From contig CAYZDT010000001.1 in NCBI GenBank assembly GCA_964477415.1, forward strand, positions 1 through 26,198: a DNA stretch of 26,198 bases, given 5' to 3'. A program made the translations under genes and the position numbers. Origin of the DNA: an uncultured Candidatus Saccharibacteria bacterium. Lineage in GTDB: Bacteria > Patescibacteriota > Minisyncoccia > Phycocordibacterales > Phycocordibacteraceae. Under the pieces are notes generated by a model. It was not told the origin of the DNA and did no database searches. It saw only the letters and a list, made by a program, of their open reading frames with translations. Positions 2,701 through 21,662 of the stretch are shown piece after piece. How positions within the stretch are numbered: the first letter of the stretch is position 1; each line of letters opens with the position of its first letter.

Positions 2701-3660
2701 TCAGAGGCCGCCCGCTTCGGCGCCGGAGGAGTATCCGGCCGCGTCCGCCGCTTCGGCCAGCGAAAGACGCGAAAGAAACGCCGCCTGCAATGCGGGAATG
2801 TTTTCTTCAGCGCCTTTCCATGCCTGCATCGCGGGAATATGAAGGCTCTGGGAGAATGCAAACGAGATCGGCCACGAAAACGGCTCCAAACGGGAAAGCG
2901 CGTTCAAATACGAAGCGGCTTCTGCGGGTTCTAGAAGGTCGTCCGCGAGCATGACGCCTCCCAGAACCTGAGGCAACGACGATGAGAGAGCGCGGAGCGT
3001 GCGTTCGGCGACTTCGGAAGGTTTCGCGCGGAGCGGATTCAACAGCCCGGTGGCGGCGAACGTGCTTCGTATAATGATTCCTTTCAAATCAAGAGCGCCC
3101 GACTCAAGTCCGTCTGACAAAAGCGAAAGAAGTTCAACGAGAGCATCCTCTGCCTGCCCCGATGTGTGCGATCCGTCGGCGCGGACCTCAACGGAGATAA
3201 CGGGGACCGCGGAAAATTCCGCACACGCTTTTGCAAACGCAACAGCGGCCGTAATCCGATCCTTCAATGCGGCGTAGGCAGACTGCTGATTCGCTTCCCT
3301 CACAATGCGCGTGAGCGCGAATACCGCGCCCATCGAACGGAGCTCTGAAAGAAGCGAACGCGTATCTTCGTCTTCGCGCACAGAAACTCCGATGAGTATA
3401 TTTTTTTCTGAAAGAAGTTCGTGATACGGCATTCCATCCATTCCCGACGCGCGCAGCGCATCCGGCGAGAGCACGACGCCGGAAAGAAAACGTTCCGCGC
3501 CTTCAGTTGATAAAAGAGCGTCGCGAAACTTCTGCAGAGCGTTTTCCGTTTCGCATCCGCGCGCGGAAAGTTCCGCGGAAAGTTCCGCATCGGCGCGGTC
3601 GAAAATAAAAATTCCTCTTCCGTCTTTTATGAGCGAACGCGCTGTCTCGTTCTGGTTCAT
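2701..3660 (-). CDS. Class I fructose-bisphosphate aldolase-like protein with degenerate active site (probable pseudoenzyme)
   Basis: Colinear with the class I FBA consensus: GRGIFIFDR~GKGILAADE, FLSGVVL~YISGVIL, VPVISVEV~VPIVEPEV, WPISFAFSQSL~WPLTFSYGRAL, AWKGAEEN. Start placed at ATG 3660 (MNQNETARSL) because the 3696 start lies in a terminator hairpin and TGC-TATAGT sits 7 nt upstream of 3660. Confidence 0.8.
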   Translation of the reverse strand: MNQNETARSLIKDGRGIFIFDRADAELSAELSARGCETENALQKFRDALLSTEGAERFLSGVVLSPDALRASGMDGMPYHELLSEKNILIGVSVREDEDTRSLLSELRSMGAVFALTRIVREANQQSAYAALKDRITAAVAFAKACAEFSAVPVISVEVRADGSHTSGQAEDALVELLSLLSDGLESGALDLKGIIIRSTFAATGLLNPLRAKPSEVAERTLRALSSSLPQVLGGVMLADDLLEPAEAASYLNALSRLEPFSWPISFAFSQSLHIPAMQAWKGAEENIPALQAAFLSRLSLAEAADAAGYSSGAEAGGL

Positions 3661-4096: not shown

Positions 4097-4474
4097 CTAG
4101 AGAAGGCTCGATTTGTACCGTTCGGGCTCGTGTGCCCCCACGTATTCGATTCTGATGCCGAACTGCTTCAAATCGGGTTCCAGGGCCTGCTGATCGTATC
4201 CGAGAAATAGTACGTCCGGCTTCGTCTCCAAGACTATCTTCCACGAACCTGTGCGCTCGTCCCCTTTGACCACAGTGAGCGCCTGATTCCACTCGCACAA
4301 TGCGCGCATGCGTTCCTCCAAGTTCTGTTTCGGTTTTTTCCCTTTCAATAATTCCACAACCGCATCGGGAGCTACCGCAACGGTCAAATCATCACACTTT
4401 GATTCGGCCTCGCTTAAAAAATGCTTATGGCCTTCATGAAGAAAATCGAAAACGCCGAAGAGAAGCCCTTTCAT
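4097..4474 (-). CDS. Cytidylyltransferase-family nucleotidyltransferase (RibL FAD synthase / TagD-like)
   Basis: FGVFDFLHEGH (HxGH motif), LTVAVAPD, KPDVLFLGYDQ; ATGA overlap with the upstream peptidase. Confidence 0.85.
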   Translation of the reverse strand: MKGLLFGVFDFLHEGHKHFLSEAESKCDDLTVAVAPDAVVELLKGKKPKQNLEERMRALCEWNQALTVVKGDERTGSWKIVLETKPDVLFLGYDQQALEPDLKQFGIRIEYVGAHEPERYKSSLL

Positions 4475-16796: not shown

Positions 16797-16823
16797 AAAA
16801 AAAAGCCCCTCTAGAGGGGCTTT
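16797..16823 (-). terminator. Intrinsic terminator ending the pyrE-deaminase-argH operon
   Basis: Perfect 22-bp palindrome AAAGCCCCTCTAGAGGGGCTTT (16802-16823) plus T8 on the minus strand; contains the argH stop. Confidence 0.85.
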
Positions 16824-18108: not shown

Positions 18109-19086
18109 TTATTTGTAATTGAGTAATGTATGTCCGTTTGAAGACGCAATCGCCACCAATTCGTCGAACTTGTAGAAGCGGCACGCCTCCATAAGAAAGC
18201 GCAGCTCAGTCCACATGTCGCCGTCGACGTACGGCTCGTAGAAATCGCATACGTTATCAACGCCGAGGCCCACCAGGACGCCCGCTTCAAGCATTTCAGG
18301 AACATTCGCAATCGAGTTGTGAACGGGCGCGGTTTTATCGTCCAATTGGCGCATGGACAAAGCCGCCGTCGGACACACCGCAACCGCGATTCCCAATTCA
18401 GCAAACCGTTTGTAAATCATTGCGCGGTATTCCTTAGGCTGAGCCGAGGTCGAAATTGCATGGACCGCGACCGTCCTGCCCTGATATCCGTGCCGCTCAA
18501 CCGCATCCGCCAGTTTCTCCGAATCGCGTTCGTCGGGATTGTTTTCCTGATCGATGTGCACGTGAACCGGCTTGTCCAGCTTTTTCGCTATTTCAAAAAG
18601 TATATCTAGATTCTCTACATCGTTCGGGCGGTCTTTCGAGGGCAGCCCGCCCGCAATATCCGCCTTCGCGGTGATTTCTTCATAGAGGGCGCGCGCTGCG
18701 GGGTCAACTAATCCGCCTAGAGGCTGGGTAATTATCTTTACGTCGATTTTCCCCTTGTATTCGGCTTTTACTTTAACCGCGGCGTCTATCGCTTTATGCC
18801 CCACCGCGTCATACGCATCGACGAACGTGCAGGTCGCGGTCGCGCCTTGCGCGACAAGCATGTCCAGGCCGCGGCGGATGCGCGCCTCAACCTCTTCCTG
18901 AGATGAGTTCCGCTTGATGTCGTCCGACATCAGCCATTTCTGCTCCATATCCACCATCGACTTATCAAGCCCTTCTTTGGTGATGTAGTACGCCTTATCG
19001 AAGTGCGCGTGGCAGTTCGCGAAGCCGCCCTTCTCTTTAATGGCGGCGAGCATCTGCGTCTTCAAATCCCAAGGTGCGTTCGTCAT
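18109..19086 (-). CDS. Amidohydrolase-superfamily metallo-deaminase (cytosine deaminase CodA-like)
   Basis: NCHAHFDKA (HxH), IAGGLP, VHVHIDQ, VAVHAIS, CPTA, GLGVDNVCD; lacks the N-terminal beta-sandwich. Confidence 0.82.
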   Translation of the reverse strand: MTNAPWDLKTQMLAAIKEKGGFANCHAHFDKAYYITKEGLDKSMVDMEQKWLMSDDIKRNSSQEEVEARIRRGLDMLVAQGATATCTFVDAYDAVGHKAIDAAVKVKAEYKGKIDVKIITQPLGGLVDPAARALYEEITAKADIAGGLPSKDRPNDVENLDILFEIAKKLDKPVHVHIDQENNPDERDSEKLADAVERHGYQGRTVAVHAISTSAQPKEYRAMIYKRFAELGIAVAVCPTAALSMRQLDDKTAPVHNSIANVPEMLEAGVLVGLGVDNVCDFYEPYVDGDMWTELRFLMEACRFYKFDELVAIASSNGHTLLNYK

Positions 19087-19715
19087 ACTTTTTGAGGATG
19101 TTCTTTTAAATACTTCGCACCATGACCGACTTCGGTGTTTATCGGCACGGTTGCCTTACAGAGTGGACATTCTTCTGCTGCGTACGTTTCCGCAGGTACT
19201 TCCGCAAGCCACGCAAGCGGCGCTCCCACCACCTCGCTTGTTATTTTTTTAGTATCGCGGTTTACGATAACGCACGCCTGTACCACGTTACCACCCGCGT
19301 CGCGTACTGGTTTGATGGCGCGGCCGACCGAAAGTCCGGTTGCCGTCGTATCCTCGATAACGAGCACGTTTTTACCAGCTACAACCTTATCGTAGCCACG
19401 TTTAAAAATCTGATTCTCTTCCTTATCCTTTTCGGTATACACAGACAGGACTTCCCTGCCAGTCGCCTTGGAAAGATAGTATGCGGTCCAGTGACCTAAA
19501 ATAATGGCGCCCATTGCAGGCGCCGAAACGATATCAATATCCAAACTTTTGTTTTTCTCGGCAAATAACTCGCCGATACGGGCTGTTTCTGCAGGATGTA
19601 CTAAAAGCGCGTCTTTATTTACGTAAATCGCCATGTGGCGACCTGACGTTCCGACAAAATGCCCCTCGAGGACGGCGCCAACTTTCTTTAGTATCTGTAT
19701 TACTTCTTCCTGCAT
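19083..19715 (-). CDS. pyrE: Orotate phosphoribosyltransferase-like type I PRTase
   Basis: GHFVGTSGRHMAIYVNK, APAMGAI, YTEK, VLVIEDTTATGLS (PRPP loop). Confidence 0.85.
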   Translation of the reverse strand: MQEEVIQILKKVGAVLEGHFVGTSGRHMAIYVNKDALLVHPAETARIGELFAEKNKSLDIDIVSAPAMGAIILGHWTAYYLSKATGREVLSVYTEKDKEENQIFKRGYDKVVAGKNVLVIEDTTATGLSVGRAIKPVRDAGGNVVQACVIVNRDTKKITSEVVGAPLAWLAEVPAETYAAEECPLCKATVPINTEVGHGAKYLKEHPQKV

Positions 19716-19736
19716 ATAGGCCTGCTCTGCCGCGTT

Positions 19737-19793
19737 TTAAAAAAATACACCCGCCGTGGGTGTTTTTATTTTTTTAATAACCGCGGAGGTCAT
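19737..19793 (-). CDS. Putative leaderless leader peptide MTSAVIKKIKTPTAGVFF (18 aa) spanning the pyrE-upstream terminator
   Basis: ATG 9 nt after the -10 box; the frame runs through both hairpins and ends in TTT TTT TAA at the U-tract. Confidence 0.5.
   Translation of the reverse strand: MTSAVIKKIKTPTAGVFF
19739..19767 (-). terminator. Terminator/attenuator hairpin upstream of pyrE
   Basis: Minus strand ACACCC-ACGGC-GGGTGT-A-TTTTTTT, ending 23 nt before the pyrE ATG. Confidence 0.75.
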
Positions 19794-19802
19794 TAAAGCC
19801 TT

Positions 19803-19831
19803 AGTATAGGGGGTCTTCGTTCCGTTGTCAA
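19803..19831 (-). promoter_or_regulatory. Sigma70-type promoter of the pyrE operon
   Basis: TTGACA (19831-19826) - 17 nt - TATACT (19808-19803). Confidence 0.85.
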
Positions 19832-19832
19832 T

Positions 19833-20834
19833 CTATGCAAAGTAATTATCCACTATTCGTGCGACTTCCCCGGCGTCTTTCGCGTCCATGAGGCGTCCGC
19901 GCAGCTCTGCGGCGTTGTCGAAACCGTTTACGTAGGCTTTGTAGTGCTTCTTCATAAGCGCGAACGATTTGTGCGGTAAAAGCTCCTCAAAGAGTTTCGT
20001 ATGCTCTACCATCACTTCAAGGCGTTTCTTGAGAGCCTGCCTATCGTTACTATATATAGTAGCAGTTGCTTCGGGCGGGAACGGCTCGGCAAAAAGCCAT
20101 GGATTGCCGAATATCGCGCGCCCAAGCATGACGCCGTCCGCGCCGCTCTCTTCCGCGCGCTTTCTCGCGTCTGGAATGTCCGCCGCATCGCCGTTCCCGA
20201 GTATCAGAACCTCGGGCGCCAGCTCATCCCGGATTTGAACCGCCCGGGCGACCTTCTCCCACTGCGCGGGAACTAAAGACATCTCTTTCCGCGTGCGCGC
20301 ATGAATCGTAAGCGCGGCGGGATGTGCGGACAAGAGATGCGGAACCCACGTCTCGAGTTCATTTTTGTTATAGCCGATTCTCGTCTTGACCGAGACGGGT
20401 AATCCCTTCGCGCCCTTCTTCGCCGCTTCTATGACTTCTTTCGCCAACTCGGGCGTTTTTATCATCGCTGCGCCTGCGCCCTGTTTCTCAATCGAACGGT
20501 CGGGGCATCCCATGTTGATATCAACACCGTCGAATCCGAGTTCGTTCGCCAGTGCGGCCGCCTTTTCCATCATTTCTGGCTTAGAAGAGAAAAACTGCGC
20601 GACAATCGGTCGCTCTGATTCCGAATACATCAAATCCGCAAGAAGCTTCTTTCTGCCCTCCTCAGGCGCGCGTACCAATCCGTCCGCCGAGACGAACTCA
20701 GTCCACATGGCGCCCATGACGCCGGGTTTTGAGTATTTCGCGATAATGCGCCGAAACGATGCGTCTGTAACATCCGCTAAGGGCGCCAAAACGAAAAACG
20801 GCTTTTTTAGATGTGCCCAAAATCCTCGACTCAT
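19833..20834 (-). CDS. dus: tRNA-dihydrouridine synthase (DusB-like)
   Basis: LAPLADVTD, WTEFVS, PIVAQFF, VDINMGCP, GAGAAMIK, PVSVKTRIG, LTIHART, GNGD, GVMLGRAIFGNPWLF. Confidence 0.93.
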   Translation of the reverse strand: MSRGFWAHLKKPFFVLAPLADVTDASFRRIIAKYSKPGVMGAMWTEFVSADGLVRAPEEGRKKLLADLMYSESERPIVAQFFSSKPEMMEKAAALANELGFDGVDINMGCPDRSIEKQGAGAAMIKTPELAKEVIEAAKKGAKGLPVSVKTRIGYNKNELETWVPHLLSAHPAALTIHARTRKEMSLVPAQWEKVARAVQIRDELAPEVLILGNGDAADIPDARKRAEESGADGVMLGRAIFGNPWLFAEPFPPEATATIYSNDRQALKKRLEVMVEHTKLFEELLPHKSFALMKKHYKAYVNGFDNAAELRGRLMDAKDAGEVARIVDNYFA

Positions 20835-20870: not shown

Positions 20871-21662
20871 TTATTCGCCTTTAAATTTGACGTAGACTTT
20901 GTTGCCGTAACGGAAATCGGCGTATTCAAAATCAGACTTGCTTTTGAAATTCTGAGAGGCAAATACGGATGCGATGTTTTCCAAGGTCGCCTCGGTGTCT
21001 TCGGTCCTTACAAACTTCAGTTCGCCTCCTTCGGCAAACGCGAGCGTTACGTCGTTATTGGCGTCAATTGAAACTGTTTTCGGCGTACGCGAAGCGGTCT
21101 GAGCACTATCTTCGACGAACGCATGAAGCCCGTCAAAGTCGGGCAGCGTTGCGCCGATGCCCCCTTCCGCCCCTCCGGAATAGACGACGTATCCGTCGGA
21201 GTCCGCGGCGGGAGCAAACATAAATCCGTCTTTGTCCATATCGAAGCACTCGGTATCCGAGCACCAGACGGCTGCGGTCGCCCGTTCAGTCAGCATGACA
21301 AGAAGCGTATGCGGATCTTTTTGGGTGAGTTTTGTTTCAAGGACGACGGGAAACGCTTCCGCAATGCCGTCCGCTATCGCGCCGCGCGGCGCGACGAAAG
21401 AATTAGAATGCGGAATCAAAAATCCGTAGGAGCCGGAAAGCTTTTCTTGTACCAGTTGCTTCACCGCCTCCGCATCGGCGCGTTCGGCGCCGGAGACCGC
21501 CACGTCGGTCAGCTGAAAGTTAGAAAGGCGCGAGACAAAGAAGACGCCTACGAATACGAGAATGACCGCCAGAGTCGCGACCGAGAGCTTCATCCACATC
21601 GCCCGGCGCCTTCTGTCGCGAAGACGGAGACGGGGCTGGACGGGCTGAACTCTCTTTCTCAC
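20871..21662 (-). CDS. ftsQ: Cell division protein FtsQ/DivIB-like
   Basis: Basic cytoplasmic tail, single TM, POTRA-like FQLTDVAVSGAE, C-terminal YADFRYGNKVYVK; GTGA overlap with the serS stop. Confidence 0.7.
   Translation of the reverse strand: MRKRVQPVQPRLRLRDRRRRAMWMKLSVATLAVILVFVGVFFVSRLSNFQLTDVAVSGAERADAEAVKQLVQEKLSGSYGFLIPHSNSFVAPRGAIADGIAEAFPVVLETKLTQKDPHTLLVMLTERATAAVWCSDTECFDMDKDGFMFAPAADSDGYVVYSGGAEGGIGATLPDFDGLHAFVEDSAQTASRTPKTVSIDANNDVTLAFAEGGELKFVRTEDTEATLENIASVFASQNFKSKSDFEYADFRYGNKVYVKFKGE

Follow-up and report, generated by a model that had tools for sequence, protein, structure and literature searches.

In the 26,198-nucleotide (nt) stretch of contig CAYZDT010000001.1 from an uncultured Candidatus Saccharibacteria bacterium that was analysed here (the window), the 117 nt between dus, which encodes a dihydrouridine synthase, and the phosphoribosyltransferase gene pyrE hold a compact leader with a promoter, a short open reading frame (ORF) and an intrinsic terminator inside that ORF. 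Comparison with related leaders, rather than experiment, supports the view that this is a promoter-proximal attenuator resembling that of the Escherichia coli pyrBI operon, with a leaderless or nearly leaderless ORF running through the terminator. The specific form that we favour, with a confidence somewhat better than even, is a ribosome-gated intrinsic terminator similar to pyrL, adapted to leaderless messenger RNAs (mRNAs), which would also deliver ribosomes to a structural gene that has no Shine-Dalgarno (SD) sequence. An earlier note on this DNA had listed a promoter, an AUG, an A-rich tract, a terminator with a U7 tract, an ORF stop and a gap of 21 nt within positions 19716-19831, and all of them are present there on the minus strand (Table 1).

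Table 1. Positions of the leader elements, the adjoining genes and further promoter boxes in the window.
Feature	Position	Strand	Remarks
-35 hexamer TTGACA, 1 nt past the dus stop codon	19826..19831	minus	invariant in 6 homologous leaders
-10 hexamer TATACT, 17-nt spacer from the -35 hexamer	19803..19808	minus	TAnACT in all homologous copies
11-nt block CTTTAATGACC: T3 run at the predicted transcription start, leader AUG and second codon	19788..19798	minus	invariant
Leader ORF, 18 codons plus UAA, peptide MTSAVIKKIKTPTAGVFF, through terminator hairpin and U-tract	19737..19793	minus	
Hairpin 1: UUUAAUGACC / loop UCCGC / GGUUAUUAAA, sequesters the AUG	19773..19797	minus	in 4/6 homologous leaders
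A-rich tract AAAAAAAUAAAAA, complementary to the U-tract	19763..19775	minus	confined to the hairpin-1 subtype
Terminator hairpin ACACCC-ACGGC-GGGUGU, 6 base pairs, about -8 kcal/mol	19747..19763	minus	stem invariant
U7 tract, after one A; its last U also begins the leader-ORF stop codon	19739..19745	minus	
21-nt spacer, leader-ORF stop to pyrE AUG	19716..19736	minus	part of the swapped pyrE cassette
pyrE, orotate phosphoribosyltransferase, pyrE_Therm type, first gene of the regulated set	19083-19715	minus	pyrE_Therm model and homologues
Amidohydrolase gene, start overlaps the pyrE stop as ATGA	19086-18109	minus	
dus, dihydrouridine synthase	20834-19833	minus	stop TAG 19835-19833
TATAAT/TATACT boxes before gene starts	21674, 15376, 11202, 10754, 9879, 9373, 6280	minus	often preceded by GG

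The leader is more than a chance arrangement, because it is conserved in related genomes and does not have to be read from a single sequence. A pyrE-homology search of genome and metagenome collections (160 loci) had given a first impression that the leader was unique to the window, and this was overturned once a search anchored on dus found homologous leaders in Paceibacteria-like contigs. The resulting small census comprises eight elements in three sequence families, namely six homologous leaders (the window, L165, L170, L171, L172 and L173) and the leaders L174b and L175. The dus protein of L165 is identical to that of the window (same species) and those of L170, L171, L172 and L173 are 72-77% identical to it; over this distance the hexamers TTGACA and TAnACT, the block CTTTAATGACC with the AUG and the terminator ACACCC...GGGTGTATTTTTTT are invariant in all six copies, which lends weight to the pyrBI-like attenuation that the earlier note had proposed. 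At the same time, the 17-nt promoter spacer is unrecognisably different among the homologous leaders, the loops of hairpin 1 differ (UCCGC, UGCUC, UACGC, ACCGC) around a stem that is constant where present, and the terminator loop differs in sequence and in length (4-6 nt). Judged by sequence, such conserved blocks set between free spacers and loops are the footprint that a functioning promoter, start region and terminator leave in a phylogenetic comparison. In the window, TTGACA-N17-TATACT is an 11/12 match, and no promoter-like site in the scanned 11 kb ranks above it. A search of 1.06 Mb of sequence with an nhmmer profile built from the six leaders revealed no additional copy, and an exact-pattern scan of viral contigs found no leader copy. 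As a separate observation, the leader promoter of L170 (3965-3990) lies within the 3' end of dus, whose stop TAA is part of the -10 box TAAACT, so that these hexamers are under both coding and regulatory constraint.

The genes behind the homologous leaders are pyrE of the pyrE_Therm type (window, L173), classical pyrE (L165, L171) or carA-carB (L170, L172), and in L172 and L173 the leader sits after a transporter gene instead of dus. These data bear on the simplest alternative, according to which the hairpin is a plain terminator of the dus transcript that happens to lie near a chance promoter-like match, with pyrE expressed by leaky, unregulated readthrough. Two observations would fit such a view: the hairpin with its A- and U-tracts resembles a bidirectional terminator and scores on the plus strand as well, because the A-tract is the complement of the T-run, and the proteins nearest to the window pyrE (78-79% identity) are encoded inside pyrC-pyrB-pyrD-pyrE operons with gaps of 1-20 nt and without a leader. 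It is nevertheless very improbable, given that the promoter hexamers are conserved while their spacer is free and always stand upstream of the terminator, that pyrimidine genes always come next even where the leader follows a transporter gene, and that the ORF with its ATGA pattern (see below) would be left unexplained. Its variant in which the hairpin only ends dus transcripts and pyrE has a separate downstream promoter, which the earlier note had set against its own proposal, is excluded: the pyrE AUG of L165 abuts the U7 tract with zero bases between, and 4 nt lie between them in L173, distances too short to accommodate a promoter or a ribosome-binding site (RBS) of its own, and therefore the pyrE mRNA must come through the terminator.

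The leader has persisted through a natural exchange of pyrE. The window and L165 share 99.4-99.8% identity over 6.4 kb, except at 19081-19737 (L165 4095-4712), where the window carries pyrE of the pyrE_Therm type and L165 the classical PRK00455 type, the two proteins being 28% identical. The leader is retained ahead of either type, and the differences between the window and L165 leaders cluster in the 45 nt beside the junction; the exchanged segment probably brought part of a homologous leader with it. Both alleles co-occur in the same public metagenomes, with the classical (L165) form dominating in three wastewater runs. Two non-orthologous orotate phosphoribosyltransferases share one slot within one species-level population.

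The second line of evidence concerns the leader ORF, which passes through the terminator in all eight elements of the census and ends at or near the start of the next gene. When the stop position is given as the last base of the stop codon, with +1 being the first base of the next AUG, the stop falls at -21 in the window (the 21-nt gap), at +8 in L165, at +14 in L170, and at +4 in each of L171, L172, L173, L174b and L175, a position that corresponds to an ATGA overlap. Such an overlap in five of the eight elements has a P of about 0.003 (for at least 5/8), assuming a chance rate of 0.15 per element. The ORF has 18-34 codons in most copies, and in L172 no stop interrupts it for 78 codons, over 182 nt of additional A/T-rich leader that is unrelated to the rest, with a P of about 0.03 in the dinucleotide-preserving shuffles by which openness was tested. 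The other two reading frames close early. A generic scan of all loci for ORFs that pass through a terminator and end at a long ORF gave many uncontrolled matches in distant members of the Candidate Phyla Radiation (CPR) and was discarded as evidence.

The frame in which the terminator and U7 tract are crossed varies among copies, with all three frames being used, and the leader peptides are alike only where the RNA is alike. No regulatory codon run of the trp/his type is conserved among the elements, Lys-Lys being missing from L172, L173, L174b and L175. Because the frame across the terminator differs between copies, it is the act of translation, and not the peptide, that appears to be under selection. 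As to conservation, by which the earlier note had proposed to judge the leader, the AUG block and the terminator are kept and the ORF is open in every copy, its frame across the terminator varies, and hairpin 1 and the A-tract occur in four of the six homologous leaders. The same data make it hardly credible that an independent small gene, be it a 55-nt small RNA or an 18-amino-acid (aa) peptide, lies between dus and pyrE. A promoter, two hairpins and a terminator do form a compact transcription unit, but the peptide frame is unconserved beyond the constraint on the RNA. In the relatives, moreover, the ORF carries on beyond the terminator as far as the start of the next gene, and pyrimidine genes accompany the unit in every case.

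The same design was found in two leaders that are not alignable with that of the window. L174b (L174 8700-8870) precedes an amidohydrolase-argH pair and consists of TTGCAG-N17-TATACT, the sequence AATTT and, 11 nt after the -10 box, an AUG opening a 42-codon ORF that runs through CUCCCG/CGGGGG and U8 and ends in an ATGA overlap; its position hints that argH and the amidohydrolase gene, whose product is cytosine-deaminase-like and matches NCBIfam PRK06886 (a model named 'hypothetical protein'), share the regulatory logic of the pyr genes. L175 (7970-8088) lies directly after dus and heads carA-carB-pyrE-pyrD-pyrB, with TTTACT-N17-TAGACT and a 30-codon ORF that passes through an 8-bp (base pair) hairpin and a U-run to an ATGA overlap with carA. 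Both lack the A-tract, the Lys codons and hairpin 1 and are U-rich before the terminator, a region that in the window has 47% A and 23% U. From the leader AUG it is 26-31 nt to the 5' arm of the terminator, and the U-tract ends at nt 51-55.

Other hairpins associated with pyrimidine genes were observed in the course of this comparison. In the more distant CPR contigs L034 (4740-4920) and L055 (3480-3660), a promoter TTGACG-N17-TATAAT stands directly after pyrE; behind it come, one after the other, two terminator-like hairpins with T8 runs and then a gene of 447-468 aa. This region may be another attenuator-type leader. In more distant relatives, hairpins occur between pyrD and pyrE: L085 (about 2960-3000) has CACACC...GGGTGTG, which resembles the ACACCC/GGGTGT stem, and L086 (about 110-180) has GAAAATACTACC...GGTAGTATTTTC.

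Hairpin 1 and the A-tract are confined to the subtype of leader found directly after dus (window, L165, L170 and L171); in L172 and L173 the 3' arm of hairpin 1, the A-tract and the Lys codons are missing and the remainder of the leader is kept. Hairpin 1, which the earlier note had described, is indeed present in the window, with a length of 10 bp (one of them a G-U pair) instead of the 9 bp given there and a predicted folding energy of -8.9 kcal/mol. These two elements are best taken as putative subtype-specific tuning elements rather than as the sensor, and hairpin 1 may tune ribosome loading or act as a pause hairpin. The A-tract, whose codons read Lys-Lys-Ile(AUA)-Lys-Thr, had been suggested in the earlier note to sense adenosine triphosphate (ATP) or purines, lysine or the decoding of AUA. 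In favour of a sensor that would work through ATP-limited pausing or Lys/AUA decoding at AAAAAAAUAAAAA (Lys-Lys-Ile(AUA)-Lys), the tract lies directly before the terminator in all four leaders of the subtype, but the tract and its Lys codons are absent from the homologous L172 and L173 and from the unrelated L174b and L175, L165 has GCA AAC in place of AUA AAA, and the tract is complementary to U7; a sensor of this kind is extremely unlikely. In the minimum free energy (MFE) fold the A-tract is base-paired to the U-tract, which lengthens the stem of the terminator, and it probably belongs to the terminator rather than serving to sense ATP or lysine.

A search for mutually exclusive antiterminator and terminator hairpins was negative, the folds placing hairpin 1 and the terminator side by side. 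A candidate antiterminator pairing of the 5' block with the 3' arm of the terminator, ACCUCCGC:GCGGGUGU, is possible at 7/8 positions in the window and was rejected on manual checking, being lost in L165 and L171. No riboswitch aptamer is apparent in the leaders, whose stretch ahead of the terminator is only 25-30 nt long and of which L172 and L173 do without hairpin 1. Rfam gave no match either: at gathering score the whole window matched nothing except a transfer RNA, and at E<=10 the region 19600-19950 gave chance-level matches only and none to the PyrR site RF00515. As a side observation, the MFE fold of window 19716-19802 (minus strand) is one nested hairpin of -31.4 kcal/mol (z = -3.2) which pairs AGGCU with GGCCU, CCGCG with CGCGG and the A-tract with the U-tract and includes the terminator; the 21-nt spacer is thereby tied to the hairpin-1 loop. 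A similar CCGC:GCGG pairing is available in L171, and L165 and L173 are unable to form the nested hairpin; this long fold was rejected as a general leader structure, since it needs the 21-nt spacer that is unique to the window cassette.

How translation begins elsewhere in the window provides the context in which the short ORF may be understood. The window has 18 exact TATAAT/TATACT boxes. In 8 cases an ATG or GTG lying 6-9 nt downstream is the first codon of an ORF of 139 aa or more; six or seven of the eight are evident gene starts (one is likely to be a Met codon within a gene), and all lack an SD sequence. This suggests that leaderless mRNAs are the norm for the first genes of operons in this organism. 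Genes inside operons overlap by ATGA or GTGA (for example at 19083-19086, 4471-4474 and 21659-21662), and translational coupling through ATGA overlaps is general (PMC6728339). From this arrangement, the organism appears to begin translation at 5'-terminal start codons and to hand ribosomes on by termination-reinitiation. The leader AUG (19793-19791) fits such a leaderless grammar, since it stands 9 nt after TATACT like other gene starts, the gene at 9358-8621 having exactly the same spacing. On this grammar, the mini-ORF would be the ribosome entry point of the operon, and the terminator would lie within its first cistron.

The mechanism that we propose on this basis comprises four steps. Transcription would start at a strong sigma-70-type promoter after dus, with start sites being placed by promoter geometry, and the 5' end of the RNA would lie at the AUG or 1-3 nt before it. 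The AUG opens a short ORF across a weak 6-bp terminator and its U7 tract, as laid out in the sequence, and this arrangement would allow two outcomes. If no ribosome is close, the hairpin would form and a transcript of about 52-58 nt would be released, whereas a 70S ribosome that has loaded at the 5' AUG would, 5-7 codons on, cover ACACCC and keep the hairpin from forming, and transcription would then proceed into pyrE, the amidohydrolase gene and argH. Finally, the ribosome would finish on or beside the start codon of the first structural gene and re-initiate there, this gene being without a usable SD sequence. In transcripts that read through from dus, the AUG would be internal and without an SD sequence, and these transcripts should terminate. 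By analogy, the physiological signal is most likely the level of pyrimidine nucleotides, in particular uridine triphosphate (UTP), which would influence how the polymerase fares in its race with the ribosome, or how transcription initiates at the conserved T3 run, or both.

The last of these points could also stand on its own. The signal might be read mainly at initiation, through UTP-sensitive reiterative transcription or start-site switching at the T3 run, with high UTP giving U-extended or aborted 5' ends that are not leaderless, so that the leader ORF would go untranslated and the terminator would act; this is compatible with the attenuator but relocates its sensor. Some support was found for this suggestion, which had also been made in the earlier note, in that all three of the unrelated leader families carry a T3 run close to where transcription is predicted to start (CTTTAATG, AATTTATG and AATTTAGGTATG). 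In E. coli three T residues soon after the start are enough, and the pyrBI transcript, which begins with AATTTG, undergoes reiterative transcription when UTP is high (PMC6524683). However, the T-run lies 6-8 nt past TATACT, which would place it at +1 rather than at +2 to +5 for starts taken from promoter geometry, and its occurrence in three families could be chance (rough P about 0.1 each), and initiation as the principal sensor is in our opinion rather unlikely. Similarly doubtful is a two-stage sensor in which UTP at the 5'-UUU would set whether the transcript begins exactly at the AUG or with extra U residues, the exact end alone being translatable as a leaderless mRNA, and in which only a ribosome loaded there would beat the terminator and, by re-initiating at the ATGA, would provide the sole route to translation of the pyr gene that has no SD sequence. 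Were this true, leaderless initiation, intrinsic termination and termination-reinitiation would be fused in one switch that has been re-invented at least three times, in three unrelated sequences, within one CPR clade.

Several points weigh against the ribosome-gated attenuator and have to be set beside the evidence above. The openness of the ORF has a P of 0.2-0.7 for most short single copies, and because single-copy openness is weak, the case for the ORF rests on L172, on the ATGA count and on the consistency over eight elements. The stems of the terminator and of hairpin 1 are invariant, so that no compensatory changes back their pairings. Hairpin 1 buries the 5' AUG, which should hinder leaderless initiation, and there is little time for a ribosome to load before the terminator is made, such that a pause of the polymerase must be assumed. 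Coupling is weakest in the window itself, where the stop of the leader ORF (UAA, 19739-19737, sharing the last U of the U-tract) falls 21 nt short of the pyrE AUG (19715) and the spacer offers only a weak SD-like AGCAGG. The public runs labelled as RNA that contain this sequence are unstranded contigs with an even, DNA-like depth and are uninformative on transcript ends, although they brought the pyrE cassette polymorphism to light, and the choice of UTP as the signal is drawn from analogy. Moreover, the invariance of CTTTAATGACC and GGGTGTATTTTTTT exceeds what pairing or translation needs and could mark a protein-binding site.

This last point leads to the main rival, in which a trans-acting factor is the real switch and the short ORF merely brings ribosomes to a gene without an SD sequence, or is incidental. 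Such a factor could be a DNA-binding repressor on the inverted repeat TTAATGACC-N5-GGTTATTAA overlapping the start site, or an RNA-binding protein with a PyrR-like logic acting on the invariant 5' block and/or on the terminator. Invariant blocks of 11 nt and 14 nt are kept as sequence, beyond their pairing potential, the arms of hairpin 1 form an 8/9 inverted repeat in the DNA from +1 to +25, and no alternative antiterminator hairpin is conserved, which means that something else may modulate the terminator. On the other hand, the right half of the repeat is gone in L172 and L173 though the leader is otherwise conserved, neither the PyrR site nor another Rfam family is matched even at E<=10, and only 25-30 nt separate the 5' end from the terminator. 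In addition, L174b and L175 have the design of an ORF passing through a terminator without the putative binding sequence. Taken together, a trans-acting switch is unlikely, although it deserves more weight than the other alternatives considered here, and the ribosome-gated terminator continues to be the reading that we favour.

With regard to the surrounding genes, all local genes lie on the minus strand, and the order 3' of the leader is pyrE, the amidohydrolase gene and argH, which encodes argininosuccinate lyase. The best model for the phosphoribosyltransferase at 19715-19083 is pyrE_Therm, with 142.8 bits against a cut-off of 150.25, and its nearest homologues, encoded in patescibacterial pyrimidine operons, have pyrD on one side and pyrF on the other; the label pyrE is reasonable because of this best match together with the homologues within pyrimidine operons. 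At 16802-16823 of the window, where the 3' end of argH meets the beginning of the next gene, there is a perfect palindromic hairpin of 9 bp, AAAGCCCCTCTAGAGGGGCTTT; it has T-runs on either strand and looks like a bidirectional terminator.

To our knowledge, gene regulation in the Patescibacteria (CPR) is almost unknown; these bacteria are uncultured and have few transcription factors and few recognised riboswitches. Literature searches on attenuation or leaderless mRNA in CPR/Patescibacteria found nothing relevant, in agreement with the earlier note, whose author knew of no described equivalent in the CPR, and the leader appears to be the first candidate for a leader-peptide attenuator in this phylum. 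Nor did these searches find a description of a leaderless ORF, an intrinsic terminator inside that ORF and a stop/start overlap in combination. The candidate, for which the E. coli pyrBI leader is a convergent counterpart, offers a concrete and testable case of "repression without repressors" in a minimal genome. It unites leaderless initiation, coupling of ribosome and RNA polymerase at an intrinsic terminator and stop/start re-initiation, which are usually studied apart. A leader that has outlived a swap of its pyrE gene, together with unrelated leaders of the same design in sister lineages, constitutes a natural experiment on the essential parts of an attenuator. It also carries a warning for annotation, as short unannotated ORFs at the heads of operons in such genomes may be required for the expression of the first gene.

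Among known systems, the closest is the E. coli pyrBI leader (pyrL), which likewise has a promoter-proximal leader ORF containing an intrinsic terminator before a pyrimidine operon, a T3 run in the initially transcribed region and an antiterminating ribosome, a role that is proposed for the window system. The pyrBI leader gene is led by an SD sequence and preceded by a U-rich pause region. The leader described here has no sequence similarity to it, its AUG in the window stands 9 nt from the -10 box, the terminator follows after 25-30 nt, the ORF stop and the structural start overlap (ATGA) in the relatives, the structural gene is without an SD sequence, and the region before the terminator is A-rich in the window. 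In E. coli rph-pyrE, an intrinsic terminator lies between an upstream ORF and pyrE and is suppressed by a coupled ribosome, rph being a real gene with a distant promoter of its own; the window has the same regulated gene, but between dus and pyrE it carries a promoter and a mini-ORF that are both dedicated. More generally, a ribosome that follows closely has been shown to prevent termination at an intrinsic terminator located within an ORF or immediately behind it, and the gene for the pyrBI leader peptide (135 bp) contains the attenuator (PMC4824070).

Leaderless short ORFs also have precedents. In the mycobacterial 'Cys ribulon', unannotated leaderless short ORFs that are the first cistrons before functionally related operons control the downstream genes, sensing an amino acid by a run of Cys codons while an RNA duplex hides the next RBS (bioRxiv 10.1101/834739). 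The leader ORF resembles these as a short first cistron at leaderless spacing and differs from them in that it has neither a codon run nor an RBS duplex, its frame is unconserved and it contains an intrinsic terminator. For Mycobacterium tuberculosis, upstream ORFs with a stop/start overlap have been proposed to suppress premature termination in 5' leaders (bioRxiv 10.1101/2022.06.01.494293); those conditional terminators are Rho-dependent, whereas the present one is a canonical hairpin with U7. With the PyrR-binding attenuators and the Bacillus pyrG leader it shares terminator-based control of pyrimidine genes in the 5' leader, but it has no Rfam match, no anti-antiterminator architecture and no G-run at the start. 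Finally, a comparison with the UTP-sensitive pyrBI, carAB, upp and codBA promoters of E. coli would turn on the invariant T3 run, which here lies 6-8 nt after the -10 box at the predicted start.

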